64,000 nucleotides of DNA from Deltaproteobacteria bacterium (GTDB taxonomy: Bacteria; Desulfobacterota; RBG-13-43-22), in the NCBI GenBank assembly GCA_016219225.1, contig JACRBX010000047.1, positions 3,846-67,845 of the forward strand, written 5' to 3'. The number at the start of each line of letters is the position of its first letter. Within the stretch, counting starts at the first letter, position 1. Shown one piece after another: positions 1-30,848 of the stretch. Both the position numbers and the translations under genes were made by a program. Below the pieces are notes generated by a model. That model had not been told where the DNA came from, searched no databases, and was given only the letters and a program-made list of their open reading frames with translations.

Positions 1-12
1 CCGGGTCGAAAA

Positions 13-960
13 GTGGCCTACCCCTCCCCGGACGACTTTGTAGACCACTTTAAAAAGGTCAGTCAGGCCATCCGGCAGGTGCAGCCCAAGGCCCAAATCG
101 GGCTCCCTATCTCCGAGACCCCCTTATGGGGAACCTATCTCCTGAGTAAGGCAGCCGGATATTATGATTTTGTGACCGGTCACTATTATGCCGTCTCCCA
201 GGCCCACCGCCGAAAGTTTGAAGCCGTTGCCTTAACTGAAAACTTCAAGATCCTGGATAAAATAATCCGCATCAATGAACTGATCAAGGCCTATAATCCT
301 GGGAAAGAGGTCTACCAACTGGATACCGAATGGGGAATGCACAGTGGAGGGCCGAACAATGAAGCGGCCGACTTTGTAACCCGAAACGCCAACATCTTCG
401 GGCTCCTTCATCGGGCCGTACGCCTGATCTATTATGCCCGGGAGGGGATCCTCCGAGGTGCCGGCTCCTGGAATTTATTGTCCAATCTGGATGCCCCCGG
501 GTTTGCCGTCCTTTCTTCTCAAGCCCCGGGGGAAAAGACTCTTTTGTATTGGCTTTATTATTATTTTAATCGCCATTTAGGAGACTGGGTTCTCGATATG
601 AAGGGGACGGCTCCTTACTATATTCCAGTTTCAGGAGAGGACCCGCTGACCAAATCAGGTGAATTTCCAGGCCCTTTAACTCCGGTCCTAACCACCATGA
701 GTAAGGACGGAAAGGCCCTTTTTTTTGTTATCGCCAATGGATCATGGCATAAGGAGGTCCCTTGCCTGGTGACTATTTTAAATCATCATTCCAGTCAGGC
801 GGAGGCTGTTTTGCTTACCCATCATGATTCTAACGGAAGACCCTTTTTGGATAGAAAGGAAGATGCTGTTTCCCGATTGCCGGTTTCGATCCAGAAACAG
901 GAACTGCGATGCAATATTCCGCCTCATTCGGTGGTTTTTATTACCGTGCGGGGGAAATAA
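13..960 (+). CDS. hypothetical protein, probably 5'-truncated at the window edge
   Basis: ORF open from the first in-frame codon of the window; no start context visible; no motif I can assign confidently. Confidence 0.35.
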   Translation: MAYPSPDDFVDHFKKVSQAIRQVQPKAQIGLPISETPLWGTYLLSKAAGYYDFVTGHYYAVSQAHRRKFEAVALTENFKILDKIIRINELIKAYNPGKEVYQLDTEWGMHSGGPNNEAADFVTRNANIFGLLHRAVRLIYYAREGILRGAGSWNLLSNLDAPGFAVLSSQAPGEKTLLYWLYYYFNRHLGDWVLDMKGTAPYYIPVSGEDPLTKSGEFPGPLTPVLTTMSKDGKALFFVIANGSWHKEVPCLVTILNHHSSQAEAVLLTHHDSNGRPFLDRKEDAVSRLPVSIQKQELRCNIPPHSVVFITVRGK

Positions 961-1014
961 GTCTCTCTCCTCTTTGCCCTGCACCTAGGGAAGCAATACA
1001 AGAGAAGAATTAAC

Positions 1015-2388
1015 ATGGGTCGTTCAAAAGCCATCTGGATCATCCTGATAATCTGTCTTGTCAGCCGGTTGATTTTCTTCCTGGCCGTTAAACCCTGGGA
1101 TCAACGGGTTAGAGACGGGATCCTTCTTAAAGAGGATGCCTTAGAGTACCACCAATTGGCCATCACCATGGCCCAAGACCATCAGTTTGCCTATGAAAAG
1201 GATGGACCTACAGATACCTTCAGAACCCCTCTATATCCTTTGTTCGTCAGTCTGATTTATTTTTTTCAAGACCAACCCAGGCCATGGACGGTTCTCTTAG
1301 TCCAAATATTGATTGATACGGCCTCCTGTTTTTTACTCTTTTTATTAATCGTTAAATTTTTAAATAAACGGATAGCGTTTTATGCCTCTCTTTTTTATGC
1401 CGTAGATCCGTTCTTTATTTTGTACTCGGTCACCCTCCTAAGTGATATCCTTTTTGTATTTTTATGCATCCTGGGGGCCATCTTTTTGGCCGTGCCCTTG
1501 GCCAGAGAATTCAAGGAAAGGAGCAGCGTCTGGATCGCCCTATCCGCCCTGACCTTCGGCCTGGCCACTCTGGTCAGACCGGTCTCCCAATTTATTCCTT
1601 TTATCATTTTTTTCTTTCTGCTCTATATCTTGAGGGAAAAATTGAAGAAAGGAATAGGGTTGATGTTGTTATTTTTTCTTTTCTTTCTATTAACCCTTTC
1701 CCCTTGGATGATAAGAAATCTGGTCCGTTTCGATACACCTTCTTTGTCAACTGTAGGGAGTTATGATATCGTCATCCTATATATTCAACCCATGGAGATC
1801 GAGCGCAGGGGACAACCCTTCGAGGATGTTCGAAAGGCCCTCCTCAAGGAGGCGGACCAGCTTATGATCCAAGATGGTAAAGATCCTCAGAGGATGAATG
1901 AATTCCAAAAAGACCCATACTGGAGAAGACTGGCCTTCCGCTATATCGCCCAATATCCTTTCTCTTTTTTAAAGCATTTTTTATTCGGTATTTTACATAC
2001 CATGGGAAATCTGGCCACCGGTCCTTATGCCGAGTTGCTCCAGCTTTCAAATAAAACGGGGAATTTTCAAATCAAAGGCCATTCCGGCTTGATCGCTTTA
2101 ATAAAAGGATGGTTTAGTCAAAAATCCAGGGTAGAAATAGGAATCGGCCTGACCATTGCTTTGTATTTAATGGGTAGTTATTTTTTGTGGGCTTTAGGTC
2201 TGATTATTTTTTGGAAAAGTTGGCGTCATCAGCCTTTTTTGTGGTTCAGCCTTTTGATAGCCTTATATTTTATTTTCATTACCGGTTCAGCGGGATTGGC
2301 CAGGTATAAACTTCCTGCCGTTCCCTTTTATTTGGTTTTTGTCGGGTTGGGCCTCCATTATATCTTGTGCCGGGACAAAAGGGAATAG
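1015..2388 (+). CDS. polytopic membrane glycosyltransferase, GT-C fold (GT39/GT83, ArnT/PMT-like)
   Basis: ~12 predicted TM helices; N-terminal periplasmic-loop motif KEDALEYHQLA resembling the DEAxY acidic motif of the ArnT/PMT family; clustered with GT2 and aminosugar genes. Confidence 0.55.
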   Translation: MGRSKAIWIILIICLVSRLIFFLAVKPWDQRVRDGILLKEDALEYHQLAITMAQDHQFAYEKDGPTDTFRTPLYPLFVSLIYFFQDQPRPWTVLLVQILIDTASCFLLFLLIVKFLNKRIAFYASLFYAVDPFFILYSVTLLSDILFVFLCILGAIFLAVPLAREFKERSSVWIALSALTFGLATLVRPVSQFIPFIIFFFLLYILREKLKKGIGLMLLFFLFFLLTLSPWMIRNLVRFDTPSLSTVGSYDIVILYIQPMEIERRGQPFEDVRKALLKEADQLMIQDGKDPQRMNEFQKDPYWRRLAFRYIAQYPFSFLKHFLFGILHTMGNLATGPYAELLQLSNKTGNFQIKGHSGLIALIKGWFSQKSRVEIGIGLTIALYLMGSYFLWALGLIIFWKSWRHQPFLWFSLLIALYFIFITGSAGLARYKLPAVPFYLVFVGLGLHYILCRDKRE

Positions 2389-2392
2389 GGAC

Positions 2393-3742
2393 ATGAAATG
2401 GTTTAAAAAGACTCCGTTTTCATTATGGGCCATTATATTAGGATATGGCTTGCTTAATATTCCTTTTTTGTTCTCAGGATTTGGAGAACCGGATGGTTGG
2501 AGAAATGGATTGGCCGCCCTGGGTTGGGCACAAGATTTGGGTTATATACCCTCCAGATTTCCGGGCTTCCCGGTGGTCGAATTGGCTTACGGTGTAGCGG
2601 CCAAGCTTTTTCCATGGGAGTCGTTTTGGATTTATACCAATTTGGTGACTCTATTCATAACGATGATCGGGATTTATTTTTTCTTTCAGATAGCGCATTA
2701 CCACAAGATATCCCAACTTCTGACAACTGTTTTACTCCTCTTTTTTATACCGGTCGTCTTTATTAACGCTTCCTCATCTATGGATTACCTCTGGACCGCA
2801 ACCTTTATCTTGATTTCCTACTGGGCCTTATTACAAAATAAAGCGATTATAGGAGGTCTTTCCCTTGGTTTGGCCATCGGAGCCCGGTTAACCACAGGCA
2901 TTTTTTTGCCCGCATTTTTACTATTTCTGGTATGGAATGAGAAAGTTTTTACTAAAAAGACTGTCCTTCGGGGAACTCTGCTGTTCGTTTGCGCGACCCT
3001 GTTCATTTCCTTGGGCGCCTATTTCCCCTTGCTCTGGCGATATCATCTTAATTTTCTGGAAACCCTATACCCGCCTCGTGATTTTATCCGGAGCGGCTAT
3101 TATGTCATGCAATGGATTTTCGGATTGCCGGGGTGGATATTTTTTCTATTCTGGGTATTCAAGAAAAGAAAAGGGTTTATGCAATGGAATTGGGAGTTTT
3201 ACTTGTGGGGGTTCATCATTGCCGCTTATCTTGTTTTGTTTCTGGTTAAACCAGAAAAAGTGGAATACCTGATCCCCATGTTCCCTTTTGCGGTCCTCTG
3301 GATCGCTCGATGGCTCAATGGGAAACACTTGACTATCTTGACCTGCCTGGTTATTGGGAATAATTTAATATCCTTCCTGGTGTTCCAACCCGGTCCCCAA
3401 GGATTGAAAATGGAATGGGTCGACAAAGGGACCGCCTTTCAGAAGTACGCCGCCTACAAGCAGTATATCGGAGATAATCGTTTTCTTGTTCGATATCCTT
3501 ATTTGCCTAATTCAGTAGTGGTTGTGGGCTGGTATGAACCTGGCATTGAATATTTCTTAGAGCTTCCTGCCAATCAGACCAGAAAGAATGAGTTGTTAAA
3601 AAACAGGATCCAATTTTCTCATAATTCCGGTTGCGCCTGGCGAAAAAACACTTATTTAGTGGAGGGACCGAGTCGGGAAAAAGAGGGAGATCCTGCTTTA
3701 GTTAATGCCCAGGTTATTCGTCTCCCCTCAATGTCCAAATAA
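2393..3742 (+). CDS. polytopic membrane protein, putative GT-C glycosyltransferase
   Basis: Many hydrophobic segments; start moved to ATG 2393 (MKWFKK) just after the upstream stop at 2386-2388; operon context with ArnT-like and GT2 genes. Confidence 0.45.
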   Translation: MKWFKKTPFSLWAIILGYGLLNIPFLFSGFGEPDGWRNGLAALGWAQDLGYIPSRFPGFPVVELAYGVAAKLFPWESFWIYTNLVTLFITMIGIYFFFQIAHYHKISQLLTTVLLLFFIPVVFINASSSMDYLWTATFILISYWALLQNKAIIGGLSLGLAIGARLTTGIFLPAFLLFLVWNEKVFTKKTVLRGTLLFVCATLFISLGAYFPLLWRYHLNFLETLYPPRDFIRSGYYVMQWIFGLPGWIFFLFWVFKKRKGFMQWNWEFYLWGFIIAAYLVLFLVKPEKVEYLIPMFPFAVLWIARWLNGKHLTILTCLVIGNNLISFLVFQPGPQGLKMEWVDKGTAFQKYAAYKQYIGDNRFLVRYPYLPNSVVVVGWYEPGIEYFLELPANQTRKNELLKNRIQFSHNSGCAWRKNTYLVEGPSREKEGDPALVNAQVIRLPSMSK

Positions 3743-4536
3743 TGGAAGGAAGGCCCATGGTACTTGGTAAAAAAGTAGTCGTAGTTATGCCGGCTTATAA
3801 TGCCGCGCAGACCTTAGAGAAAACCTATAGTGAGATGCCTCATGAAGTAGTGGATGATGTGATTTTAGTCGATGATTTCAGTCATGATCGGACGACTGAA
3901 TTGGCCCGGTCTTTGGGGATCAAAGTTTTTCTCCATGAGAGTAACTATGGGTATGGAAGAAACCAAAAAACTTGCTATGCCGAGGCGTTGAAAGTGGATG
4001 CCGATATCATTGTTATGCTCCATCCGGATTATCAATATACACCCAGGCTGGTTCTACCTATGGCTGCTATGATTGCCGGAGGGGAATATGATGTGGTTTT
4101 AGCCTCCCGGATCATTGGTGGGGGCGCCTTAAGTGGGGGAATGCCCTATTATAAATATATTTTTAATCGCTTTCTTACCGCTTTCCAAAACCTATTGATG
4201 GGTTCAAAACTCTCTGAATTTCATACCGGCTATCGGGCTTTTTCACGGAAGGTTTTGGAAACACTTCCTCTATTGGAAAATTCAGATGATTTTGTTTTTG
4301 ATAACCAGATGTTGGCCCAAACCTTGATTTTCGGATTTAAGATCGGAGAACTCTCCTGTCCGACCAAATATTTCCCCGAAGCCTCATCGATTAATTTTTG
4401 GAGAAGTTCTCGATATGGGATCGGGGTAATCCTGACCAGCCTGACGTTTCGGCTGCAAAAATTGCGATTCGTGCACTCCCGGTTATTTAGCTCCAAAGGC
4501 CAACGTTTGGGGGAAGGTTATTATAAAAAATATTAA
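3742..4536 (+). CDS. glycosyltransferase family 2, polyprenyl-phosphate sugar synthase-like (DPM1/ArnC-like)
   Basis: VVVMPAYNAAQTL...VILVDDFSHDRT GT2 nucleotide-binding and DxD region; start overlaps upstream stop (TAATG). Confidence 0.7.
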   Translation: MEGRPMVLGKKVVVVMPAYNAAQTLEKTYSEMPHEVVDDVILVDDFSHDRTTELARSLGIKVFLHESNYGYGRNQKTCYAEALKVDADIIVMLHPDYQYTPRLVLPMAAMIAGGEYDVVLASRIIGGGALSGGMPYYKYIFNRFLTAFQNLLMGSKLSEFHTGYRAFSRKVLETLPLLENSDDFVFDNQMLAQTLIFGFKIGELSCPTKYFPEASSINFWRSSRYGIGVILTSLTFRLQKLRFVHSRLFSSKGQRLGEGYYKKY

Positions 4537-4716
4537 TTTTTATACTATTTTATCCTTGATAGAGTTTTTTTTATCCTTTATTCTTTCTGAAGATAATAAA
4601 AGAGATTAGGAAATAATCAATCTCAGTCAAAACACGCTAAAAACGATGGTAAGAGATAGGGAGATCAGGGGATAACCTCAAAATAATTGTAGCTAAGAAA
4701 AAACGAGAGGATAAAT

Positions 4717-5196
4717 ATGCCGATAGCATCAGATGTTAAATTGGGGAAAGGGGTCTGCTTCCATCATCCCGAATTAATCAATCTCTATGGGTGCAGTATC
4801 GGTGATGAGACCAAGATCGGTGCCTTTGTGGAGATCCAAAAAAATGCCCAAATAGGTGCCCGTTGCAAGATTTCCTCTCATGGTTTTATCTGTGAAGGGG
4901 TAACGATTGAGGATGAGGTCTTTATAGGGCATGGGGTGATCTTTATTAATGATCGGTATCCTCGGGCAACAAGGGATGGTTATTTACAGGATGATAGCGA
5001 TTGGGAGGTCGTCCCCACAAAGGTTAAACGCGGGGCTTCTATCGGTAGCGGGGCGTTGATCCTTTGTGGCGTAACTATTGGAGAGAAGGCCATGGTGGGT
5101 GCAGGAGCCGTGGTCACTCAGGATGTACCCGACTGGGCCATAGTTGCAGGGACGCCAGCCAGATTCATTAGGAATATCAATGAAAAAGAGCAATAG
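4717..5196 (+). CDS. sugar N-acetyltransferase, left-handed beta-helix (hexapeptide repeat) family
   Basis: Repeated [LIV]G-x4 hexapeptide pattern (IGAFVEI, IGARCKI, IGHGVIF, IGSGALI, VGAGAVV); WbpD/QdtC-like size. Confidence 0.7.
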   Translation: MPIASDVKLGKGVCFHHPELINLYGCSIGDETKIGAFVEIQKNAQIGARCKISSHGFICEGVTIEDEVFIGHGVIFINDRYPRATRDGYLQDDSDWEVVPTKVKRGASIGSGALILCGVTIGEKAMVGAGAVVTQDVPDWAIVAGTPARFIRNINEKEQ

Positions 5197-5199
5197 GAA

Positions 5200-5574
5200 T
5201 TGACTGTTTCTGGTCTGATATTGGTGATTTTCAGCGCTTTATTGACTGTGGCGGCTAATCTCCTAATGAGAGCGGGGATTTTGCGGGCCGGTGGATTTCA
5301 TCTTGGATTAAATACGATCCGTGAACCCATCCTGTCCCTCCTTCAGCAACCCATGTTTCTGATAGGAGTTATTTTATATGGAGCTGCTGCGGTTGTCTGG
5401 TTTCGCGTCCTTTCTTTTGAAAATCTCAGCAATAGTTATCCCTTACTGGTGAGTCTGACTTTTGCCTTGGTTACTTTGGGTGCGGCTTTATTTTTTCACG
5501 AACAAATCACTTTGCAGAAGATAGTGGGGTTGTTGGTAATCTTAGTGGGTATTATATTAGTGGCTTCAAATTGA
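5200..5574 (+). CDS. small 4-TM DMT/SMR-type protein, ArnE/ArnF-like undecaprenyl-phosphate-aminosugar flippase subunit
   Basis: 124 aa, four hydrophobic helices, TTG start; sits between the acetyltransferase and oxidoreductase genes. Confidence 0.5.
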   Translation: MTVSGLILVIFSALLTVAANLLMRAGILRAGGFHLGLNTIREPILSLLQQPMFLIGVILYGAAAVVWFRVLSFENLSNSYPLLVSLTFALVTLGAALFFHEQITLQKIVGLLVILVGIILVASN

Positions 5575-5584
5575 GGAAAATTAA

Positions 5585-6601
5585 ATGATCCAAGTAGGTG
5601 TGATTGGTTATGGGTATTGGGGGCCCAACTTGGTCCGTAATTTTTTGGAGGTCCCTGGGTGCCGGGTAGTAATGGTGAGTGATTTGCGCCCTGAACGGTT
5701 GGCCTTAGTACAACAACGTTATCCAGGGATAAGGATAACCGTTGATTATCATGATTTGATTTCCGACCCGGCTATAGATGCCATAGCTATCGCCACCCCT
5801 GTTCATACCCATTTTAGCTTAGCTCTTGAGGCCCTACGGTTAGGAAAGCATGTGTTGGTAGAGAAGCCCTTGGCCGATACCTCTGATCATTGTCTTCAGC
5901 TTATTGAAGAAGCGGCCGGGCGAAATAAGGTATTGATGGTGGACCACACCTTTGTTTATACCGGGGCCGTGCGAAAAATCAGAGAATTGGTTGAGGGCGA
6001 TAGTCTGGGTGACCTTTACTACTATGATTCGGTGAGAATAAATCTCGGGTTATTTCATAATGACGTCAATGTGATCTGGGACTTGGCGGTACATGATCTT
6101 TCCATTATGGATTTTGTCATGTCGTCACGACCAATTGCTGTATCCGCAACGGGTATCCGCCACATTCAGGAACAACCTGAAAATATTGCCTATCTTACTT
6201 TATTTTTTAATAACTTTTTGATCGCCCATTTACATGTTAATTGGCTTGCTCCTGTTAAAATACGTCGGACGTTACTTGGGGGAAGCCAAAGAATGGTTGT
6301 CTACGATGACTTAGAGTTTAGTGAAAAGGTTAAGGTCTATGATAAGGGAGTCACGGTTAATAGCACTGTCGATAGCCTTTACCAGGTGCTGGTTGGTTAT
6401 CGTACCGGCGACATGTGGGCACCCCAATTATCTACGACTGAGGCCTTGTTAATGGAATCTCAACACTTTATCTCCTGCATTGAGAAAGGCGAGCACCCGG
6501 TTACGGACGGACAAGCTGGTTTGCGGGTGGTGCGTATCATCGAAGCAGCTACCCAGTCCATGGCTCAGCGTGGGCGGCCGATGGATTTGAGCAAGGACTA
6601 A
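5585..6601 (+). CDS. Gfo/Idh/MocA family NAD(P)-dependent sugar oxidoreductase (WbpB-like)
   Basis: N-terminal Rossmann MIQVGVIGYGYWGPNLV; EKPLA motif typical of the family. Confidence 0.75.
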   Translation: MIQVGVIGYGYWGPNLVRNFLEVPGCRVVMVSDLRPERLALVQQRYPGIRITVDYHDLISDPAIDAIAIATPVHTHFSLALEALRLGKHVLVEKPLADTSDHCLQLIEEAAGRNKVLMVDHTFVYTGAVRKIRELVEGDSLGDLYYYDSVRINLGLFHNDVNVIWDLAVHDLSIMDFVMSSRPIAVSATGIRHIQEQPENIAYLTLFFNNFLIAHLHVNWLAPVKIRRTLLGGSQRMVVYDDLEFSEKVKVYDKGVTVNSTVDSLYQVLVGYRTGDMWAPQLSTTEALLMESQHFISCIEKGEHPVTDGQAGLRVVRIIEAATQSMAQRGRPMDLSKD

Positions 6602-6603
6602 CG

Positions 6604-7698
6604 ATGATCCCATTCGTCGATTTGAAAGCCCAGTATTTAAGTCTTAAGGAAGAGATTGACACCGCTGTGGCTAAAATTTTTGAAAGTTGCCAGTTTATCT
6701 TGGGAGATGAAGTTTCGGCCTTTGAAAAGGAATTCGCCGCTTATACCGGAACACGGTTCGGAATCGCCGTAAATTCAGGGACCAGTGCTTTGCATTTGGC
6801 TTTATTGGCAGCCGGAATAGGCTTGGGTGATGAAGTGATCACCGTCCCGTTCACCTTTGTGGCCACCGTAGCGGCTATTGAATATGTAGGAGCCCGCCCG
6901 GTCTTTGTTGACATCGAGCCCGGATCCTATACCATGAATGCAAAACAAATTGAGGAAAAAATCACTGAACACACCAAGGCCATTCTTCCCGTCCATTTGT
7001 ATGGCCAACCCGCCGATATGGATCCAATTCAAGAAATTGCCCGAAGGAATGGTCTGGTCATCGTCGAAGACGCCGCTCAAGCCCATGGAGCCGAGTACAA
7101 GGGGCAAAGAGTCGGAGGGATCGGTCACTTGGGATGTTTCAGCTTTTATCCGGGGAAAAACCTGGGGGCCTATGGTGAGGGTGGAATGGTGGTCACCAAC
7201 AATCCTGAATATGATCGTTTGATTCGTATGCTGCGTGATTGGGGGCAGGACCGGAAATACTCCCATGTATTAAAAGGGTTTAATTTTCGTATGGAAGGGC
7301 TGCAAGGGGCTATTCTGCGAGTCAAATTACGGCATCTCGAAGCTTGGACGGAGTCTCGGAGGACTCATGCGGACGAGTATCGTAACAGGCTAATAGGATG
7401 TGATTTGCAGCTACCGGAGGAGATGCCCTATGCCCATCACGTCTATCATGTTTTTACCGTTCGTTTTTCCCGAAGAAATGTTCTTCAGGAAAAATTAACC
7501 GCCGAAGGGATACAAACAGGGATCCATTATCCTTTGCCGGTGCATTTACAAATGGCTTATTCTAATTTGGGTTATCAGAGAGGTGATTTCCCATTTTCAG
7601 AAAGTGCAGCAGAAGAAGTTCTTTCTCTGCCTTTGTATCCCGAAATGAATGAAACTCAAATAGAAAGAGTCTGCAAGGTCATAAAGCAAAATGGATAA
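6604..7698 (+). CDS. DegT/DnrJ/EryC1/StrS family PLP-dependent sugar aminotransferase
   Basis: Conserved SFYPGKNLGAYGEGG and DAAQAHG motifs of the DegT family. Confidence 0.8.
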   Translation: MIPFVDLKAQYLSLKEEIDTAVAKIFESCQFILGDEVSAFEKEFAAYTGTRFGIAVNSGTSALHLALLAAGIGLGDEVITVPFTFVATVAAIEYVGARPVFVDIEPGSYTMNAKQIEEKITEHTKAILPVHLYGQPADMDPIQEIARRNGLVIVEDAAQAHGAEYKGQRVGGIGHLGCFSFYPGKNLGAYGEGGMVVTNNPEYDRLIRMLRDWGQDRKYSHVLKGFNFRMEGLQGAILRVKLRHLEAWTESRRTHADEYRNRLIGCDLQLPEEMPYAHHVYHVFTVRFSRRNVLQEKLTAEGIQTGIHYPLPVHLQMAYSNLGYQRGDFPFSESAAEEVLSLPLYPEMNETQIERVCKVIKQNG

Positions 7699-7952
7699 AC
7701 CTCCTATGGAATATTATAACGCGAAAATGCTGTTCGTCGTTTACCTTTCGGGGAAATAAATTCTTAAGATTCAAGATGCTCAATGAAGCAGATTTGCGAG
7801 TTTAAAAAGGATTCCTTTGAAAAAATGAAAGTTTATAATAAAGGGTTAACCCTTATCGATAACCCTGAGAATCGTTTTTAGATGATGACCGGCTACAGGC
7901 AGAAGGGATATGTGGGCTCCTCCTTCGGATATCAACGAAGCCTTATGGAAAA

Positions 7953-9569
7953 TTGATGTCGGATAATACCTTTCTGAGGCCTCACCTCGCAAACCCAAAG
8001 CTCATTTTAATATTATTAATCTTATTGGCATGGTCTTGCCGACTCATCCTTGTCTTCCATGGCGGTCAATTGTTTTGGCCGGATGAGATGCGATACTTCC
8101 GGACATGGAAATTACTTTACTATATTTCCAACGGAAATATAGGGGAGGCTGTGGACGCTCTTATCCCAGATTCTTATGTGAATGGAGGATTTATTTTCCT
8201 ATCCACCATTCCTGCTTTTTTTCAATATGGAATAATTCTTTTAAAAAATCTCCCTCTTACTTTAGCATCGGTTGGGGATACGAGTTGGGTGCCTGCCCTA
8301 TTTCTGTCGACTGCCTCCGTAGCCAGTATTGGATTAATCTATGCTGTTTCTCGAAAGAAAGGTGCCGGTGAAACAGAGAGTCTGCTGGCAGCATTCTTGA
8401 TGGCCATCTCGGTGAGTATGTTGTATTATTCTCGTCATCTGTTTTCTTACGACCTTGCCATGGCTTTAGGCCTACTGGCTTTGTGGCTAGGATTGAATCA
8501 GCACTGGAATATTCGACAATCGGTCCTGTGCGGTCTTTTGGCCTTTTCAACTTTTTGGGTTTATAATGGATATTGGTTATTTGCCTTGACATCTCTGGTT
8601 TTTCACACATTATCCGGTAAGCCGCCGAAACGGGACATGATTAAACGAGGGGTAGTCAGCGGATTTGGATTCATCTTACCCATAGCCCTGCTAACCCTTT
8701 GGACTTTTTACCGAGGCACAACTCCGTTTATCACTAAATTGGTCAGGAGTAGCCAAGTCATAACACAAGGTGATTTTTCTGAAGGTTGGTCTTTACCCTG
8801 GGTCTATCTTTGGCAGGCTGAACACGGTCTGCTATTTCTATGGGGAATAGGCATTGGAATAGTCCTTTGGCTGTCTTTTAGGGACCGGCACCCGGCCCGT
8901 GAGCGGGGTTTGGTCTGGGTAGGAGCCGTAGCCGGAATTTATTTGTTTCTTTTCTTTTTTTCTTCTGTCCTTGAAAAAATGGTCGTCTATGGGCGTCTGG
9001 CCCGACAAATGGTGCCTTTTTTATGCCTATCAGCTTCTTGCGGCCTTACCTATTTTGTGGAAAGATATTGGCCTAAAGGTAAAAATTGGATGCTAATCAT
9101 CTTTATCCTTATTTTGATCCAAACAGCGATTAACTTTGCCCAACCTTTCAACCAGCGTTTCCCGGTTGACATTCAGCGTCGGGTAAAGGATCATTATGGA
9201 GAAGTAGCTCTGGATTTATCGATTAAGTGCCCCCCGGCCTTATGTGAAAAGGAGAAAAAGATGTTTTTGATTAAACGTCAGTTAGAAGCCATCTACGGAG
9301 AAAAGGCCCGAAACCTAATTATGAAGGAATCATCGGCAGAGGATGGAAAGGGGGAAAGGTGTCCCTCGCCATATGTTTTAGTAAATGCTCAATATCTCTA
9401 CCCAGTCTGGGGATCCAAGACCATATCGACCGGTGAGACTTTGTTAAGCTTTAACCATCCGTTGCAGTATCTTCCCTATCAGTATGAAGGGTATACCCCC
9501 AAAGAACGCTCAATTCTCAGATCTACGGATATTTCCATGCGTCTGATAGATACCAGAACCACCCGATAA
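7953..9569 (+). CDS. polytopic membrane protein, putative GT-C glycosyltransferase
   Basis: Multiple TM helices; early loop motif FWPDEMRYF (acidic DE..Y motif as in GT-C transferases). Confidence 0.4.
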   Translation: MMSDNTFLRPHLANPKLILILLILLAWSCRLILVFHGGQLFWPDEMRYFRTWKLLYYISNGNIGEAVDALIPDSYVNGGFIFLSTIPAFFQYGIILLKNLPLTLASVGDTSWVPALFLSTASVASIGLIYAVSRKKGAGETESLLAAFLMAISVSMLYYSRHLFSYDLAMALGLLALWLGLNQHWNIRQSVLCGLLAFSTFWVYNGYWLFALTSLVFHTLSGKPPKRDMIKRGVVSGFGFILPIALLTLWTFYRGTTPFITKLVRSSQVITQGDFSEGWSLPWVYLWQAEHGLLFLWGIGIGIVLWLSFRDRHPARERGLVWVGAVAGIYLFLFFFSSVLEKMVVYGRLARQMVPFLCLSASCGLTYFVERYWPKGKNWMLIIFILILIQTAINFAQPFNQRFPVDIQRRVKDHYGEVALDLSIKCPPALCEKEKKMFLIKRQLEAIYGEKARNLIMKESSAEDGKGERCPSPYVLVNAQYLYPVWGSKTISTGETLLSFNHPLQYLPYQYEGYTPKERSILRSTDISMRLIDTRTTR

Positions 9570-9673
9570 AGAATGAATAAGATAGGGATAGGAAACTCAA
9601 GTTTGGCAAATTTTTTATGTTACCAGTGCTTCTGCTCTTCCAGGCAGGTTGCGGATATAAAGGAAAATGACTA

Positions 9674-10447
9674 TTGACTGATCCGATTGGAAAAATAAAA
9701 AAATTTTGGGATGATCGGGCACTAAATGACGATTTGTCGGAAGATCTACTTACTCATCGTGACAAAAATCAGAGAATGTTGGAGATTGAGACCCTATCGT
9801 CCCACCTTCCATACAACCAACATATCCTGGATATCGGTTGTGGAAATGGCTTTTCAACGGCCTTATTCTCCAAACAGGCCCAAAAAATTGTTGGTCTTGA
9901 CTATTCCGGGGCTATGATTGAGCGGGCCAAAAACAATTTTGGACATCTTCCTAATATTGAATTCAAGGTTCAAGATGTGCTCAATTTGGATTTCCCGGAG
10001 TGTCATTTCGATGTTGTTATTTCTCAGCGATGTCTGATTAATCTTGGAACCTGGGAAAATCAACAAAAGGCCTTGCTGAACATTAAAAAGGTTTTAAAGC
10101 CCGGCGGTTTTTTCCTCCTTCAGGAAGGGACACGGCAAGGGCGGGAAAAATTAAATCAAACGAGGGAAATTTTCGGCTTGGACCGCATGCCGGAGGTGTC
10201 TTTTAATCTTGATTTTGATGAAGACAAACTCTGGCCTTTCATCCGGCAGCATTTTGATATTGTCGAAATTCGCCGGTTTGGGCTTTATGATTTGATTTCA
10301 CGGGTGGTGCATCCTCTTTTGGTCAGTCCCGCCAAACCCGAATACGATGCCGAAATAAATAAGATTGCCCGGCGCCTTTCCCGGTTAAGGGGAATGGAAG
10401 AGTTGAGTCGAGAGTTCAGCGCCTTTTTGCGTCGCTTGGACGAGTGA
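9674..10447 (+). CDS. class I SAM-dependent methyltransferase
   Basis: Motif I ILDIGCGNGFST; TTG start as given by the ORF track. Confidence 0.65.
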   Translation: MTDPIGKIKKFWDDRALNDDLSEDLLTHRDKNQRMLEIETLSSHLPYNQHILDIGCGNGFSTALFSKQAQKIVGLDYSGAMIERAKNNFGHLPNIEFKVQDVLNLDFPECHFDVVISQRCLINLGTWENQQKALLNIKKVLKPGGFFLLQEGTRQGREKLNQTREIFGLDRMPEVSFNLDFDEDKLWPFIRQHFDIVEIRRFGLYDLISRVVHPLLVSPAKPEYDAEINKIARRLSRLRGMEELSREFSAFLRRLDE

Positions 10448-11472
10448 CGGGAAAAAGGCACAAAAATACAAAAAGATTGAGTGGCGGGAAGGAATTAGAA
10501 TTGAGATTAGAAAAAAGCAGGGTATTGATTACCGGGGGAGCCGGATTAGTCGGGTCCCATATCGTTGACCATTTAGAAGGAATGGGGCTGGCGGAAATTG
10601 TTATTCTTGACAACTTTGGTCGCGGCCGACGTGAGAATCTATCTTTGGCCATGGCCCGTAGCCCTCTAAACATCATCGAAGGCGATATAAGAGACCGAAA
10701 ATTGTTGGCTGAGGCGATGAAAGGGATTGACGTTGTTTTTCATCAAGCAGCCATCCGTATTACCCAATGTGCCGAAGAACCGCGCTTGGCTCTTGAGGTA
10801 ATGGCCGATGGAACTTTCAATGTTTTGGACGCGGCGGTCCGGGCGGGCGTAAAAAAAGTTGTGGCCGCCTCTTCTGCCTCGGTTTACGGTCTGGCTGACA
10901 CCTTCCCCACCCCTGAGTCCCATCATCCTTATTATAACCGTACTCTTTATGGTGCAACTAAGGTGTTTAATGAGGGTTTGCTGCGGTCTTTTAATGACAT
11001 GTATGGTCTCGACTATCTCGGTTTGAGATACTTTAATATTTATGGACCTCGCATGGATATTTATGGCGCTTATACGGAGGTCTTGATTCGATGGATGGAA
11101 CGGATTGTTAAGGGAGAACCGCCTCTTATTTTCGGGGATGGCACCCAGACCATGGATTTTATTTATATAGAGGACGTGGCCAGGGCCAACATCTTAGCGG
11201 CCGAGGCTGAAGTTACCGATGAAATTCTAAATATAGCCAGTGGGAAAGAGACGAGCCTCAATGAATTGGCCCAGGCCTTATTAAAAACCATGGGATCGGA
11301 TTTGTCTGTCCAGCATGGTCCTGAACGAAAAGTAAATCCCGTTTCAAGACGCCTGGCTGATGTGAGTAGAGCCCGGAAACTGATAGGCTTCGAAGCCCAA
11401 ACCTCTTTGGAGCAGGGATTGGGTCTTTTGGTTGATTGGTGGCGGACGCAAAAGAAGGATGTTGATCGATGA
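10444..11472 (+). CDS. NAD-dependent epimerase/dehydratase family protein (nucleotide-sugar)
   Basis: VLITGGAGLVGSHIVDHL Rossmann motif; YxxxK region (YGATK); GTG start overlapping the upstream TGA, start uncertain. Confidence 0.7.
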   Translation: MTGKRHKNTKRLSGGKELELRLEKSRVLITGGAGLVGSHIVDHLEGMGLAEIVILDNFGRGRRENLSLAMARSPLNIIEGDIRDRKLLAEAMKGIDVVFHQAAIRITQCAEEPRLALEVMADGTFNVLDAAVRAGVKKVVAASSASVYGLADTFPTPESHHPYYNRTLYGATKVFNEGLLRSFNDMYGLDYLGLRYFNIYGPRMDIYGAYTEVLIRWMERIVKGEPPLIFGDGTQTMDFIYIEDVARANILAAEAEVTDEILNIASGKETSLNELAQALLKTMGSDLSVQHGPERKVNPVSRRLADVSRARKLIGFEAQTSLEQGLGLLVDWWRTQKKDVDR

Positions 11473-12653
11473 TTCCGATTATCAAACCCATCATGGACCA
11501 AACGGAGGTCGAGGCCGTAGAACGTGTAATTTTGAGCGGGTGGGTTACCCAGGGACCGGAAGTGGCTGCTTTTGAACAAGCCTTCGCTTCACAAGTAAAG
11601 GCGGAACATGCCTGTGCCGTTTCAAGTTGTACTGCCGCCCTGCATCTGGCCTTGCTGGCTGTGGGGGTTAAACCGGGAGATGAAATCATCACGGTAACCC
11701 ATTCTTTTATTGCCACGGCCAATAGCATCCGTTATTGCGGAGCAATACCGATTTTTGTAGATATACAGCCGGGAACCTATAATATGGATCCCTCTCTTAT
11801 TGAAGAGGCCATTTCAAGCCGAACCCGGGCCATTTTATGTGTGCATCAGATGGGTATGCCTTGCGATCTCAATAAAATCATCAATGTGGCCCGGAGGCAT
11901 TCTCTGCTGGTAATTGAGGATGCAGCCTGTGCCATAGGGAGTGAAATTCTCCGGAAGGGGAAATGGGAAAGGATCGGTAAACCCCATGGCGATATAGCCT
12001 CTTTTTCCTTCCATCCCCGCAAAATTATCACTACCGGAGATGGAGGAATGATTACCACGGCCAACCCGGAATGGGATAAGAAAGTGCGTCTTCTTCGACA
12101 ACATGGAATGAGCGTTCCCGATACGGTGCGACACGGTGCCCAGCAGGTAATTTTTGAGTCTTATCCGATATTGGGATACAATTATCGTCTGACCGATATT
12201 CAAGCAGCGATCGGAAAAGAACAACTCCAAAGACTGTCGAAAATTATAGGGCGACGGCGACAATTAGCCTCTAACTATTTGAGGTTGATGGCCGATTGGC
12301 CTGGTTTTGGATTGCCGGTGGAGCCTTCCTGGGCCAGAAGTAATTGGCAAAGTTTCTGCGTCCGCCTTCCAGATAACTGCGACCAGCGAGAAACCATGCA
12401 ATCTTTGTTGAAGGCCGGGGTTGCCACACGACGGGGGATTATGTGCGCTCATCGGGAGAAAGCCTATGACCGGGGAGATTGGTCCTGTGGCCCCTCCTCG
12501 GAGAAATGTGATTGCCCCCCCAAGACCTGTTTCCGTCTTAAACAAAGTGAACAGGCGCAAGACCGAACCATCATTTTACCTCTTTACCATCAAATGACTG
12601 ATGATGAACAGGAAAAGGTCGTCAAAAGCCTTAAAATGGCCTGCGGGGTTTAA
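11469..12653 (+). CDS. DegT/DnrJ/EryC1/StrS family aminotransferase
   Basis: Family motifs (DAACAIGS, SFHPRKIITTGDGG); ATGA overlap with upstream gene. Confidence 0.75.
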   Translation: MIPIIKPIMDQTEVEAVERVILSGWVTQGPEVAAFEQAFASQVKAEHACAVSSCTAALHLALLAVGVKPGDEIITVTHSFIATANSIRYCGAIPIFVDIQPGTYNMDPSLIEEAISSRTRAILCVHQMGMPCDLNKIINVARRHSLLVIEDAACAIGSEILRKGKWERIGKPHGDIASFSFHPRKIITTGDGGMITTANPEWDKKVRLLRQHGMSVPDTVRHGAQQVIFESYPILGYNYRLTDIQAAIGKEQLQRLSKIIGRRRQLASNYLRLMADWPGFGLPVEPSWARSNWQSFCVRLPDNCDQRETMQSLLKAGVATRRGIMCAHREKAYDRGDWSCGPSSEKCDCPPKTCFRLKQSEQAQDRTIILPLYHQMTDDEQEKVVKSLKMACGV

Positions 12654-12819
12654 GAAAAAACACTCTTCGTCGTTGTGTGATTCGTCGTTCGGCGAAACCG
12701 ATTTTATACTTCAAGGTGCCTCTGGGGGCATGAGGGTGCGAGAAAAAAATAAAGATCGGAGTTCGAAGAAAACCATTTTTATATTGCCTTCTTACCGTTT
12801 CAGGGCATAAGGGTTAATA

Positions 12820-13806
12820 ATGGAAAAAACTTTTCTTTCTCTGGTAACTCCGGCGTTTAACGAAGCAGAGAATTTGCCAGTTTTATATGATCGGTTATCG
12901 AAAATCCTCAAAGCTTTAAACTTGGAATGGGAATGGCTAATAATTGATGATCATTCTGCAGATGATACCTTTGGGGTGATAACCTATTTGGCTAAACAGG
13001 ATACACGGGTTCACGGAATTCGCTTGTCCAGAAATTTCGGTTCTCATATGGCTATAACCTGCGGACTCCAACGGGCCAAAGGGACTGGTGTGATTATTAT
13101 GGCGGCCGATTTACAAGACCCTCCTGAAACACTGCCGGCCCTTTTGGAAAAATGGCGTAATGGTGCCCAGGTTGTTTGGGCCGTTCGACGGTTACGGGAA
13201 GGGGAGAAAAGTTCTAAAGTCGGCTTTTCTCGTCTATATTATTTCTTGATGCGGCGGATTACGGGAATAAAAGATATCCCGGCTACCGGAGCCGATTTTT
13301 TTTTAGTTGATCGTACTGTCGTTAATGCCTTCCGGGAATTCAGCGAGCGAAATGTTAGTATCATGGCTCTGATAACCTGGATGGGTTTTCGGCAGGATTA
13401 CATTTATTACGATAAACAAGCCCGAAAATTCGGTCGTTCGGGATGGGATCTCAGGAAAAAACTAAAATTGGTTGTAGATTCAATGACCTCGTTCACCTAT
13501 TTACCCGTCCGTCTCATGTCATACCTCGGCTTTTTCGTTGCTTTAATGGGACTGGTTTATGCCGCAGTGGTCATCATTAACGCTTTGAGAGGAAACCCGG
13601 TACAGGGCTGGTCTTCTCTCATGTTGGTCGTACTGGTAATCGGCGGTTTTCAAATGATTATGATGGGAATCTTAGGGGAATACCTCTGGCGGTCTTTGGA
13701 TGAATCCAGGCGACGCCCCCCCTATCTGATTGAGGCTGTTACAGATTTTCGATCCAATTCCAGTGATACCGATAATAAAACCGATCGAGAAATCGGAAAC
13801 ATTTGA
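12820..13806 (+). CDS. GT2 polyprenyl-phosphate glycosyltransferase with C-terminal TM helices (GtrB/ArnC-like)
   Basis: LSLVTPAFNEAENL...LIIDDHSADDT GT2 motifs plus two C-terminal hydrophobic helices. Confidence 0.75.
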   Translation: MEKTFLSLVTPAFNEAENLPVLYDRLSKILKALNLEWEWLIIDDHSADDTFGVITYLAKQDTRVHGIRLSRNFGSHMAITCGLQRAKGTGVIIMAADLQDPPETLPALLEKWRNGAQVVWAVRRLREGEKSSKVGFSRLYYFLMRRITGIKDIPATGADFFLVDRTVVNAFREFSERNVSIMALITWMGFRQDYIYYDKQARKFGRSGWDLRKKLKLVVDSMTSFTYLPVRLMSYLGFFVALMGLVYAAVVIINALRGNPVQGWSSLMLVVLVIGGFQMIMMGILGEYLWRSLDESRRRPPYLIEAVTDFRSNSSDTDNKTDREIGNI

Positions 13807-13868
13807 GATGGTGTTCCATTTCGAACCCTGAGAGGACAGTCAGGGGAAAAATTTTTTGAGGTTAAAAG

Positions 13869-14981
13869 ATGGCAACTGAAATTTCTAAAGAAGCCCGTAT
13901 TTATGTGGCCGGGCATGGCGGGCTGGTGGGTTCGGCCGTCCTCCGCCGATTAAGGCAGGAAGGCTTTTCCAATATTTTGACCGCCACCAGGGAACAATTG
14001 GATCTGCGGGATCAGGCGGCGGTCAATTACTGGTTCCGGGCCAACCGGCCGGAATTTGTTTTTCTGGTGGCCGGAACGGTCGGGGGGATCCTGGCCAATG
14101 CCACCCGGCCGGCGGAATTCATCTATGACAACATGATGATCCATGCTACCGTGGTCCATGCGGCCTATATTTTTAAGGTCAATAAACTCCTTTATCTGGG
14201 CAGCTCCTGTATCTACCCCCGGGAATGCCCCCAGCCCATTAAGGAGGAATATCTCCTGACTGATGTGCTTGAACCGACCAATGAAGCCTATGCCATTGCC
14301 AAGATCGCCGGGATTAAACTCTGTCAGGCTTACCACCGCCAGTACGGCTGCAATTTTATTTCCGGTATGCCGACCAATCTATACGGCCCTCATGACAATT
14401 TCGATTTACAGAGTTCCCATGTGCTCCCGGCCCTGATTCGGAAATTTCATCTGGCCAAATTAGCCGCTCAGGGGAAATGGGAAGAAATTGAAGCCGACGA
14501 AAAGATATTCGGTCCCCTGCCGGAAGACTTGCGCCTTTCCCTGGGACTTTCCAATCGGATCCGGCCACTGGCCGGCGGCACACCGCAATCGGTGATTATC
14601 TGGGGTTCCGGGGCCCCCAGACGGGAGTTCCTTTATGTGGATGACCTGGCCGATGCCTGCCTATTTATTATGCGCCACTATGAACCTTATCTCGAACCTG
14701 GGCCTATAGTCCAAAGGAATGTAATCGACCATCTCAACATCGGAACCGGCGTGGACCAGACCATTCGGGAACTGGCCGAAGCCGTGCAAAAGATCGTCTA
14801 TCCGGAGGCCAACCTGATCTTTGATCACACCAAACCGGATGGGACCCCCCAGAAGCTATTGGATATCTGTAAATTGAAAGATTTGCAGTGGCGTCCCAGG
14901 ATCGGTTTGGAAGAAGGGATTGCCCAAACCTATGACTGGTATGTCAAAGAAACCGAAAGATTAAGAGGGCAGGGGGGATAA
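13869..14981 (+). CDS. fcl: GDP-L-fucose synthase (GDP-4-keto-6-deoxy-D-mannose 3,5-epimerase/4-reductase)
   Basis: Strong similarity to E. coli Fcl throughout ([61 protein letters not shown]); contains an internal ~40-aa insertion. Confidence 0.85.
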
Positions 14982-15000
14982 GCTCTAACCGAAGCTATTT

Positions 15001-15195
15001 GAAATTTCGTATCAGTTTAGCTTTTGGAAAACGGCGATAACCCCTCTGTCATTCCGGTGAAAACCGGAATCCAGGTGTTATGTTGAGACGAAAAGAACCT
15101 GGATTCCGGTTTTCACCGGAATGACGTTTGAGAAAGTCAGGATTTTCATGTAAAAGTTTCAAGTTTTTCAAAAGGCTAAATTGTTACGAAATTTC
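15001..15195. repeat. MITE-like palindromic element, copy 1 (terminal inverted repeats plus a 27-bp perfect inner inverted repeat)
   Basis: The ends gaaatttcgtatcagtttagc and gctaaattgttacgaaatttc are inverted; the core cattccggtgaaaaccggaatccaggt is mirrored around a 22-nt spacer; second copy near 19.0-19.2 kb. Confidence 0.7.
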
Positions 15196-15217
15196 TCTGT
15201 TTTTCGTTTTTAGGAGT

Positions 15218-15260
15218 AACCAGCATCCAGCATCCAGTAACGAGTAACCAGTAACCCGCA
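15218..15260. repeat. 7-nt-period tandem repeat array (CCAGCAT / CCAGTAA units)
   Basis: ccagcatccagcatccagtaacgagtaaccagtaacc read directly. Confidence 0.7.
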
Positions 15261-30694: not shown

Positions 30695-30848
30695 TTTTGT
30701 TTCCATAAATTTTTTGGGTTGCATTTATTGAAAAGATATGATACCTAATCAAGGTAAGTGTGGTCATCCCCTTATAAATCAGAGTAGCGCATGGGCAGCC
30801 GAGTACTCTAAGGCCGCGTACACCAGTATAGAAAAGAAAGGGTGGGGA

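Follow-up and report, generated by a model that had tools for sequence, protein, structure and literature searches.

The window analysed here is a stretch of 64,000 nucleotides on contig JACRBX010000047.1 of an uncultured deltaproteobacterial metagenome-assembled genome (MAG), and its first part carries a block of genes (1015–14981) that probably represents a composite locus for glycosylation at the periplasmic face of the membrane, built of two donor modules, each supplying a lipid-phosphate-linked sugar in the manner of a "three-component" scheme. The hallmarks of such systems are a polyprenyl-phosphate-sugar synthase, a flippase and a GT-C glycosyltransferase acting after export of the sugar (PMC11127046). 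Thirteen open reading frames (ORFs), all on the plus strand and either overlapping by 1–4 nt or lying no more than 255 bp apart, make up the block, and glycan-related functions are predicted for all of them. The initial annotation had described a co-directional 14-kb block combining genes for sugar synthesis, carrier loading and transfer; Pfam and NCBIfam scans of the 14 window ORFs at 13–14981, from which the domain assignments of these ORFs were obtained, confirmed almost all of the corresponding domains. The GC content is 43–48% in the block versus 49–57% across most of the remaining window.

GT-C Membrane Transferases

Three polytopic membrane proteins, g01, g02 and g08, are GT-C glycosyltransferases, as the initial annotation had supposed. 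The assignment of g01 is based on a Pfam match, that of g02 on homologs, family profile and predicted fold, and that of g08 on predicted fold; neither g02 nor g08 has a Pfam match of its own. The first of them, g01 (1015–2388, 457 amino acids (aa)), is of the PMT_2 type (GT39/GT83, ArnT-like): it matches PMT_2 (PF13231) with 38.9 bits, above the gathering cut-off of 26.1, and contains about nine hydrophobic segments. Nearly all of its homologs with a precomputed Pfam match are PMT_2 proteins, named "ArnT-like" or "GT39" in their source.

Protein g02 (2393–3742, 449 aa) is a divergent GT-C similar to the GT87, GT22 and GT50 families; its ORF opens with TTG at 2339, and the likely start is ATG at 2393. 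Several homologs carry PF09594 (GT87), a family profile made of 19 sequences matches GPI mannosyltransferase 1 (PIG-M) with an E value of 4.3e-5, and Foldseek relates the AlphaFold2 (AF2) model (pLDDT 84.7, pTM 0.87) to ALG9, ArnT, ALG12, EmbB, STT3 and PglB. The family is rare, with 20 matches. In turn, g08 (7956–9569, 537 aa), the C-terminal periplasmic domain of which is conserved, belongs to a family for which Pfam has no model. When 1.84 billion representatives were searched, this family (E<1e-30) accounted for 815 clusters formed at 50% identity. Its AF2 model, built from 46 homologs (pLDDT 89.3, pTM 0.90), was related by Foldseek to STT3, ALG12, Pmt4, AglB and AftB, and a weak NCBIfam match to Agl23 was obtained. 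Homologs P0040 and P0017 lie in unrelated contexts, and P0013 is a paralog in the same MAG. Searches of g01, g02 and g08 against PDB sequences by phmmer gave nothing useful, and neither did the profile of the g08 family. Fusions of this family with a GT2 domain were sought, and the ten longest fusion proteins contained PA14, Acyl_transf_3 or nothing. Alignment of g02 with g08 by hhalign gave a probability of only 87% over the N-terminal 150 columns; judging from their sequences, these two proteins are related only remotely, and the three GT-C families are mutually remote.

The position just after the first transmembrane (TM) helix, TM1, is that of the proposed catalytic Asp of GT-C enzymes (PMC11127046), and acidic residues occur there in all three proteins: E40-D41..E44-Y45 in g01, E32-x-D34 in g02, where D34 is invariant in the family, and D43-E44..Y47 in g08, where D43 is invariant and E44 and Y47 are at least 90% conserved. 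The "DE..Y" loop motif of the initial annotation is thereby found literally in g08 and as ED..EY in g01, but not in g02 with its E-x-D. Because the N-termini are basic, loop 1 should be periplasmic according to the positive-inside rule, and the three proteins thus show the GT-C fold with an acidic residue in the first extracytoplasmic loop that belongs to the three-component definition (PMC11127046).

The public gene model of g08 (HY879_03705, 472 aa) starts 65 codons late, the conserved N-terminus corresponding to 7956–8150, and thereby omits TM1 and the D43/E44 motif common to all homologs.

Carrier Machinery

Two glycosyltransferases of family GT2 and of the polyprenyl-phosphate type, expected from the initial annotation, were found in the block. 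A membrane-anchored ArnC/GtrB/PgfS-like protein, g12 (12820–13806, 328 aa; PF00535, 85 bits), aligns end to end with the NCBIfam models of PgfS (203 bits) and ArnC (164 bits, cut-off 529), scoring below the equivalog cut-offs, and its two C-terminal hydrophobic segments at 235–285 correspond to the layout of GtrB and ArnC. It is a candidate polyprenyl-phosphate glycosyltransferase. The second protein, g03 (3742–4536, 264 aa; PF00535, 72 bits), is DPM1/AglJ/PpgS-like, has no TM segment, and reaches 64 bits with AglJ and 57 bits with PpgS, both below cut-off; it also resembles dolichyl-phosphate hexose transferases and is a candidate polyprenyl-phosphate-hexose or polyprenyl-phosphate-HexNAc synthase for a second donor. 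At the family level, both g12 and g03 would correspond to the polyprenyl-phosphate-charging enzyme of the three-component definition (PMC11127046).

Between them is encoded g05 (5200–5574, 124 aa), a protein of DMT/SMR type with four hydrophobic segments, which had been described as ArnE/F-like and indeed matches ArnF with 55 bits (E 9e-15, cut-off 99) and ArnE with 35 bits, below cut-off in both cases. Weak EamA and TMEM234 matches were also recorded, and there was no match to GtrA (PF04138) in the Pfam and NCBIfam scans. This protein is a candidate flippase for the lipid-linked sugar, the flipping itself being a prediction.

The same membrane proteins were considered as parts of a conventional Wzx/Wzy cluster for O-antigen or exopolysaccharide (EPS), in which the polytopic proteins would be Wzy, WaaL or Wzx and the GT2s ordinary cytoplasmic glycosyltransferases. 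We regard this as highly improbable, although WbpB/E/D-like and Fcl nucleotide-sugar genes are typical of O-antigen clusters and the block is poorer in GC than the DNA around it: g12 aligns with ArnC and PgfS over its whole length, including the TM hairpin, the acidic residues after TM1 are invariant, and no Wzy_C, Polysacc_synt or phosphoglycosyl transferase match was detected in the 14 ORFs of a cluster that continues upstream of the window. The initial annotation had itself named membrane proteins outside GT-C, or of the Wzy/Wzx type, as grounds for abandoning its proposal; the membrane proteins proved to be GT-C, and neither Wzx nor Wzy nor a phosphoglycosyl transferase was found among these ORFs.

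Sugar Biosynthesis

Genes of the C3 branch (g06, g07 and g04) are tightly packed together with g05 within 4717–7698 and encode, side by side, a probable 3-dehydrogenase, C3 aminotransferase and 3-N-acetyltransferase. The Gfo/Idh/MocA oxidoreductase g06 (5585–6601; Pfam GFO_IDH_MocA) is a candidate UDP-GlcNAc 3-dehydrogenase, since its best NCBIfam match is the archaeal enzyme of this name (171 bits, cut-off 450); its PDB matches at E≤1e-15 are all weak, one of them being 7bvj (67 bits), which we take to be the UDP-GlcNAc 3-dehydrogenase GnnA. Protein g07 (6604–7698; PF01041, 416 bits) is a DegT-family C3 sugar aminotransferase whose closest named solved relatives are the C3 aminotransferases DesV (2oga), QdtB and WbpE (285 bits); the top PDB match overall is 7b0d (433 bits), deposited as glutamine--scyllo-inositol transaminase. 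A left-handed beta-helix N-acetyltransferase for 3-amino sugars of the WlbB/QdtC/FdtD type, g04 (4717–5196, 159 aa; Hexapep, 68.5 bits), has 4mzu (FdtD), WlbB (3mqg), 7s43 and QdtC as its closest solved structures, the names of these relatives (FdtD, WlbB and QdtC) being those given in the reference list of PMC8040287, and is 56–73% identical to the product of the gene adjoining that of the Gfo/Idh/MocA oxidoreductase (GFO) in loci of other phyla. The product of this branch is predicted from sequence to be UDP-2,3-diacetamido-2,3-dideoxyhexose (UDP-GlcNAc3NAc) in its non-uronic form. A search of the 64-kb window by tblastn with the UDP-sugar 6-dehydrogenase of a Chloroflexaceae locus (L032) revealed no WbpA-type enzyme, which could be encoded elsewhere in the genome.

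The C4 branch (9674–12653) consists of three overlapping genes. A DegT-family C4 sugar aminotransferase of the ArnB/PseC/Per-like type, g11 (11469–12653; PF01041, 362 bits), scores 318 bits with PseC and 266 bits with ArnB (cut-off 631), both below cut-off, has ArnB and perosamine synthase as its closest solved structures, and retains the pyridoxal phosphate lysine, as read from the sequence. Its C-terminal part (window 12500–12620) contains a Cys-rich insertion (…DWSCGPSSEKCDCPPKTCF…). The product of g09 (9674–10447, overlapping g10 by 4 nt) is a generic class-I S-adenosylmethionine-dependent methyltransferase (Methyltransf_25/11) and, from the position of its gene, a candidate N-methyltransferase for the 4-amino group.

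Protein g10 (10444–11472) is an extended short-chain dehydrogenase/reductase (SDR) similar to UDP-HexNAc 4-epimerases. Its closest solved relatives include 4zrm (deposited as UDP-glucose 4-epimerase), WbpP and WbgU, as well as 6dnt and 6wjb, which were deposited only as "NAD-dependent epimerase/dehydratase" and which we take to be UDP-GlcNAc 4-epimerases, the latter being PelX. Its motif SSASVYG lacks the Glu of 4,6-dehydratases and decarboxylases and differs from STSEVYG of ArnA, with which g10 scores only 47 bits (cut-off 777). A role of g10 as a 4,6-dehydratase or decarboxylase feeding g11 was rejected on the basis of the epimerase-type motif and the nearest structures, despite the LegB-like counterpart in a sister cluster. 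The rest of the window was also examined for another source of keto sugar, Gmd or a UDP-sugar dehydrogenase, and neither was found. Thus, from the list of sugar enzymes in the initial annotation, the Gfo/Idh/MocA oxidoreductase, the two DegT aminotransferases, the hexapeptide acetyltransferase, the methyltransferase and Fcl were recovered, but its "epimerase/dehydratase" is better described as 4-epimerase-like.

Related Loci in Other Phyla

A sister cluster with the same borders is present on a Thermodesulfobacteriota MAG contig (L001/L004), where most genes are 78–98% identical. Its centre (8223–15588 versus 4717–12653 of the window) is a mosaic: g05 and g09 are missing, the aminotransferase gene DegT1 has moved and is 67% identical, and a 232-aa hexapeptide acyltransferase and a LegB-like SDR of the 4,6-dehydratase type stand in place of g09 and g10. 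This SDR (SSSEVYG; LegB, 233 bits) is 38% identical to g10, and the g10 counterparts of L004, L018 and L038 are all LegB-like with SSSEVYG or STSEVYG. The mosaic looks like the swapping of cassettes that alters a substituent of the sugar.

To survey g08 homologs, 185,579 species genomes were scanned, which gave 80 loci whose neighbours within 10 kb were recorded. The homologs come from Planctomycetota, Verrucomicrobiota (many of them Opitutaceae), Acidobacteriota, Chloroflexota, Gemmatimonadota, Thermodesulfobacteriota and others. In raw counts, with no formal background, a GFO gene was found in 11 of the 80 loci, a g04-type acetyltransferase in 9, the second aminotransferase (DegT2) in 7, an SDR in 7 and a g12-type GT2 in 12, the cassette-linked loci belonging to Planctomycetota, Verrucomicrobiota, Chloroflexota and Thermodesulfobacteriota. 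The Singulisphaera genomes examined contain the g08 homolog only, without the cassette.

The composition of the linked loci varies. In a Planctomycetales locus (L018), PMT_2-like, Wzy_C, g08, GFO, Hexapep, a methyltransferase 44% identical to g09, DegT2 and SDR genes are combined, and a locus of a Phycisphaerales MAG (L038) has PMT_2-like, Wzy_C, g08, GFO, Hexapep, a formyltransferase, DegT2, SDR, a GT2 designated GT2b and DegT1. The locus of Verrucomicrobia (L019) comprises g08, GFO, a GNAT-like protein, a methyltransferase, an SDR 64% identical to g10, an NTP-transferase, DegT2, GT2b and an unknown ORF of 473 aa, and that of Chloroflexaceae (L032) YfhO, Hexapep, GFO, g08, SDR, UDP-sugar 6-dehydrogenase and DegT2. 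The Opitutaceae loci L063, L067, L076 and L080 contain GT2, g08 (in some cases two copies), GT2b, additional PMT-like GT-C genes, GFO, Hexapep and DegT1, and a g12-type GT2 adjoins the g08 homologs both in these and in other loci. Since the compact loci L038 and L019 pair both amination branches with one detected GT2, which is of the g12 type, a single multiply aminated donor for g12 and g08 is favoured.

The slot beside DegT2 is occupied by a methyltransferase in the window and L018, by a formyltransferase in L038 and by a hexapeptide acyltransferase in L004; such an alternation of methyl, formyl and acyl groups would be expected if the 4-amino group were subject to alternative N-tailoring. 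The formyltransferase (13278–14552 of L038) has Formyl_trans_N and Formyl_trans_C domains and is ArnA-N-like, and by sequence comparison this cassette closely parallels ArnA-N/ArnB/ArnC and is strikingly Arn-like. The working order proposed by the initial annotation, namely Arn/Gtr-like synthesis, loading on polyprenyl phosphate, a small flippase and periplasmic transfer by GT-C, gains support from related cassettes of this kind, in which an ArnA-N-like formyltransferase stands beside ArnB-like and ArnC-like genes.

Close homologs of g02 were used for a scan of metagenomes, which gave 10 loci. A g03 ortholog directly follows the g02 homolog in the window, in L001 and in L087 (85% identical), a methyltransferase gene often precedes it (L084, L089, L090, L092 and L094), and its surroundings in L084 and L085 include other GT-C genes, GT4s and a heparinase-like protein or sulfotransferases. 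One of these loci, a 37-kb contig of a Pseudomonadota MAG (L084), contains the g02 homolog, two PMT_2 proteins, two GT2s, methyltransferases, sulfotransferases and APS kinase, as well as four ORFs of the size of membrane proteins (431–611 aa) without Pfam matches; its product may be a sulfated and methylated glycan whose synthesis depends heavily on GT-Cs.

Such accumulation of GT-C genes, also in L063 and L067 (several GT-C-like) along with the two PMT_2 genes and g02 homolog of L084, bears on the idea of de novo glycan assembly in the periplasm, according to which the three GT-Cs would act in sequence on one growing chain, using monosaccharide-phosphate-lipid donors, as occurs in mycobacterial arabinan and lipoarabinomannan synthesis and in the lumenal ALG steps of the endoplasmic reticulum. 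Three different GT-Cs and two donor synthases in one operon-like block would suit this idea, and neither a cytoplasmic GT1 or GT4 nor an initiating phosphoglycosyl transferase is encoded in the window part of the cluster. However, the window covers the cluster incompletely at its 5' end, and backbone genes may lie upstream. The upstream genes scanned on the sister contig gave no GT-family match; a primer or acceptor lipid finds no support in the data. On balance, we consider de novo assembly rather improbable.

Proposed Mechanism and Acceptor

In the two-module scheme that we prefer, the C3 branch of the first module would start with the oxidation of UDP-GlcNAc at C3 by g06, followed by amination at C3 by g07 and acetylation by g04. 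The C4 branch (g10, g11 and g09) would either place a 4-(N-methyl)amino group on this sugar too or yield a separate 4-amino sugar. Then g12 would load the sugar onto undecaprenyl phosphate (Und-P), g05 would flip it, and g08 would transfer it to a periplasmic acceptor. In the second module, g03 would produce polyprenyl-phosphate-hexose or polyprenyl-phosphate-HexNAc, which g02 and/or g01 would use for transfer. The folds, families, TM layouts and cross-phylum gene linkage underlying this scheme are established, while substrates, the pairing of GT2s with GT-Cs, flipping by g05 and the acceptor are deduced from them. Several acceptor sites, suggested by the initial annotation as a reason for the number of GT-Cs, are one option only, and two separate donor/GT-C modules fit the data better.

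A more specific and rather speculative version, which we hold to be possible but doubtful, is that the enzymes of the C3 and C4 branches modify one and the same nucleotide sugar, giving a previously undescribed Und-P-linked triamino sugar, 2,3-diacetamido-4-(N-methyl)amino-deoxyhexose or -pentose, and that g08, as the founder of an unrecognised GT-C family (at least 800 clusters in at least six phyla), transfers it. Lineages would then exchange the methyl, formyl or acetyl substituent at 4-N for variation of surface charge or antigenicity. By analogy, such a triamino sugar would be a hyper-aminated counterpart of Und-P-Ara4N. A related sugar, 2,3,4-triacetamido-2,3,4-trideoxy-L-arabinose, is known from Psychrobacter (PMC8040287).

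The acceptor would most likely be a pre-assembled surface polysaccharide, lipopolysaccharide (LPS) or EPS, at which Wzy_C and YfhO neighbours in related loci and the weakly GH39-like neighbour g00 in the window may hint. As a general acceptor, lipid A is excluded by the occurrence of the g08 family and the cassette in Chloroflexota; these bacteria are generally held to lack LPS.

Proteins were weighed as acceptors too. Protein O- or N-glycosylation from polyprenyl-phosphate sugars has precedents in actinobacterial Ppm1/Pmt, streptococcal Pgf and archaeal Agl systems, and here g01 (PMT-like) and g08 (STT3/AglB/Pmt4-like) would glycosylate secreted or S-layer proteins. The membership of g01 in the PMT_2 family, PgfS and AglJ as the best NCBIfam matches of g12 and g03, respectively, and the weak Agl23 match of g08 are in agreement with this. 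But a shared GT-C fold gives no information on what is glycosylated, as ArnT and ALG12 score equally well, and neither an STT3 C-terminal domain nor a WWDYG-type motif was detected. A gene of the Wzy_C ligase/polymerase family between the GT-C genes of L018 and L038, YfhO in L032, and GT4s, the heparinase-like protein and sulfotransferases in L084 and L085 indicate a polysaccharide context instead. We therefore find glycosylation of proteins an unlikely function of the block and return to polysaccharide as the probable acceptor.

Several observations weigh against the two-module scheme. All NCBIfam scores at the equivalog level are below cut-off. The candidate flippase g05 was not found in the otherwise syntenic sister cluster L004, and a dedicated flippase is therefore not obligatory. 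The active-site motif and the nearest relatives of g10 are of the epimerase type, which leaves the origin of the 4-keto substrate of g11 unexplained within the window: among its genes no recognisable source was detected, and its 64 kb contain no homolog of UDP-sugar 6-dehydrogenase or of Gmd. Approximately 60 of the 80 g08 loci have none of the cassette genes within 10 kb, and the pairing of GT2s with GT-Cs is not clean in L084.

Comparison with Known Systems

The block follows the logic of the Arn system (arnBCADTEF), which leads from an SDR through a C4 aminotransferase and N-tailoring to a membrane GT2 loading Und-P, a 4-TM flippase and a PMT_2-type GT-C. In comparison with Arn, it lacks the ArnA decarboxylase/formyltransferase and the ArnD deformylase, has an epimerase-like SDR, and adds a branch for C3 amination and acetylation, a methyltransferase, a second GT2 and two further GT-Cs. 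In the 14 ORFs, neither a Formyl_trans domain nor the polysaccharide-deacetylase domain of ArnD was detected, the scores of g11 (266 of 631 bits required), g12 (164 of 529) and g05 (55 of 99) remain under the Arn equivalog cut-offs, and g01 matches only PMT_2 and not the ArnT equivalog. Because ArnA and ArnD are absent from the ORFs scanned and the equivalog scores are below cut-off, the block is not a member of the arn type.

An Arn-type function, in which an ArnT-like GT-C would add a cationic 4-amino sugar, kept charged by N-methylation in place of N-acetylation, to lipid A phosphates or core, lowering the surface charge and giving resistance to cationic peptides, nevertheless deserves attention in view of the ArnB-, ArnC-, ArnF- and PMT_2/ArnT-like character of g11, g12, g05 and g01, the ArnA-N-like formyltransferase of the related cassette L038, and the UDP-sugar 6-dehydrogenase of L032, which adjoins an SDR of the decarboxylase/dehydratase type and DegT2. 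It appears to us unlikely all the same: to the absence of both ArnA activities and of ArnD among the scanned ORFs and to equivalog scores far below cut-off must be added the occurrence of g08 homologs and of the linked cassette in Chloroflexota, a phylum generally held to lack LPS, and the fact that N-acetylation in the C3 branch gives bulk and not charge. A modification of surface polysaccharide by two modules remains our preferred explanation.

With Gtr systems and their pentofuranose variant (PMC11127046), the block shares a predicted polyprenyl-phosphate-sugar synthase, a candidate flippase and a post-export GT-C, but it has no protein of the GtrA family (PF04138), contains two synthases and three GT-Cs, and its predicted donors are di- or tri-aminated sugars and not Glc, Gal or pentofuranoses. 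Since no GtrA was found among the ORFs scanned, the block does not belong to the gtr type either.

The number of GT-Cs, which had been called unusual, was confirmed as three and is not without precedent. In Rhizobium leguminosarum rgtA-D/rgtE, one lipid-phosphate-sugar synthase is said to feed several GT-Cs acting at different positions of the LPS core and lipid A, and Rgt is thus a precedent for many GT-Cs in one system. The Rgt donor, however, is GalA and all its GT-Cs are ArnT-like, whereas an amino sugar and three mutually remote GT-C families are concerned here. The work on galacturonosylation by rgtA-D/rgtE (Brown et al. 2012) appears in the reference list of PMC9393093, and "more elaborate systems containing multiple ... 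GT-Cs" are mentioned in PMC11127046.

The C3 branch is similar to WbpB/WbpE/WbpD (WlbA/C/B) and to archaeal and GnnA-type pathways in having a Gfo/Idh/MocA 3-dehydrogenase, a C3 aminotransferase and a small left-handed beta-helix N-acetyltransferase. It differs from WbpB/E/D in the absence of WbpA (UDP-GlcNAc 6-dehydrogenase) from the window and in that g06 scores best with the archaeal non-uronic enzyme. To our knowledge, the products of known 2,3-diacetamido pathways are used by cytoplasmic glycosyltransferases and are not loaded onto Und-P for a GT-C, and among the papers searched, none linked GlcNAc3NAc to a polyprenyl donor or a GT-C.

Similarities were also seen with mycobacterial PpgS/Rv3779 (polyprenyl-phosphate-GalNAc) and Ppm1/PimE (GT87), as g03 resembles PpgS and DPM1-type synthases and relatives of g02 carry GT87. 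The streptococcal Pgf system consists of PgfS, two GT-Cs and an epimerase; the combination of one GT2 and an epimerase with two GT-Cs is comparable, and PgfS is the best match of g12. Mycobacterial and streptococcal systems differ from the block in phylum, acceptors and sugars, and the likeness is at the family level, with scores below cut-off. What appears to be new is the predicted donor chemistry, the joint occurrence of two synthases with GT-Cs of three unrelated families, and the g08 family, for which no model exists, along with the cassette linked to it across phyla.

Borders and Neighbouring Genes

The last gene of the block, g13 (13869–14981), encodes a GDP-L-fucose synthase-like protein (Fcl) that is 98% identical in L004 and matches the NCBIfam model GDPFucSynFcl in two stretches (449 bits, cut-off 500), with an insertion of about 40 aa at approximately residues 202–240. 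It would supply GDP-fucose for the glycan serving as acceptor or would be a passenger. Downstream of g13 lie TRAP and ABC transporter genes in convergent orientation, together with genes of anaerobic redox metabolism; since these are not related to glycans, the 3' border was placed at about 14981.

The 5' border is beyond the start of the window, which cuts the upstream neighbour g00 (13–960, plus strand). This ORF represents the C-terminal 315 aa of a protein of approximately 673–694 aa and matches Glyco_hydro_39 weakly (E 0.005); for the full-length ortholog, the similarity to GH39 and CBM_4_9 is likewise weak. The counterpart in the sister cluster (L004, 2431–4515) shares 97% identity with g00, and homologs with 77–78% identity occur near g02 homologs in L085 (18874–20919) and L093 (9687–10496). 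Thus, g00 is a conserved partner of the cluster and may be a PslG-like hydrolase of the same polysaccharide system. Scans of 1–15400 for promoters and terminators gave no enrichment over shuffled sequences and did not define operon boundaries, and an Rfam search of the window gave no match.

Farther downstream, a 655-aa protein (30738–32705) combines an SLT lytic transglycosylase domain with three LysM repeats, and a 1473-aa fusion protein (41542–45963) contains Pyr_redox_2, Fer4_20, FAD-binding and 4Fe-4S domains (HdrA/GltD-like), followed by genes of FlpD/MvhD-like, FAD-oxidase/CCG, HGD-D and aldehyde:ferredoxin oxidoreductase proteins. The latter region belongs to anaerobic metabolism of the electron-bifurcation type and is unrelated to the glycan cluster.

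Conclusions

Since the three-component mechanism has already been established, no concept is overturned by these results. The lipid-phosphate-linked donors known so far include Glc, Gal, GlcNAc, GalN, GalA, Man, Ara4N and pentofuranoses; if the proposed scheme is true, this extracytoplasmic repertoire would be extended to di- and tri-aminated sugars, and a sizeable GT-C family without a Pfam or CAZy-style model would gain a function. It would also mean that a modular cassette in at least four phyla diversifies the N-substituent of its sugar by swapping one tailoring gene. In this case, the findings would be of use for the annotation of MAGs, the glycoengineering of amino-sugar epitopes and the understanding of envelope charge control in poorly studied phyla.

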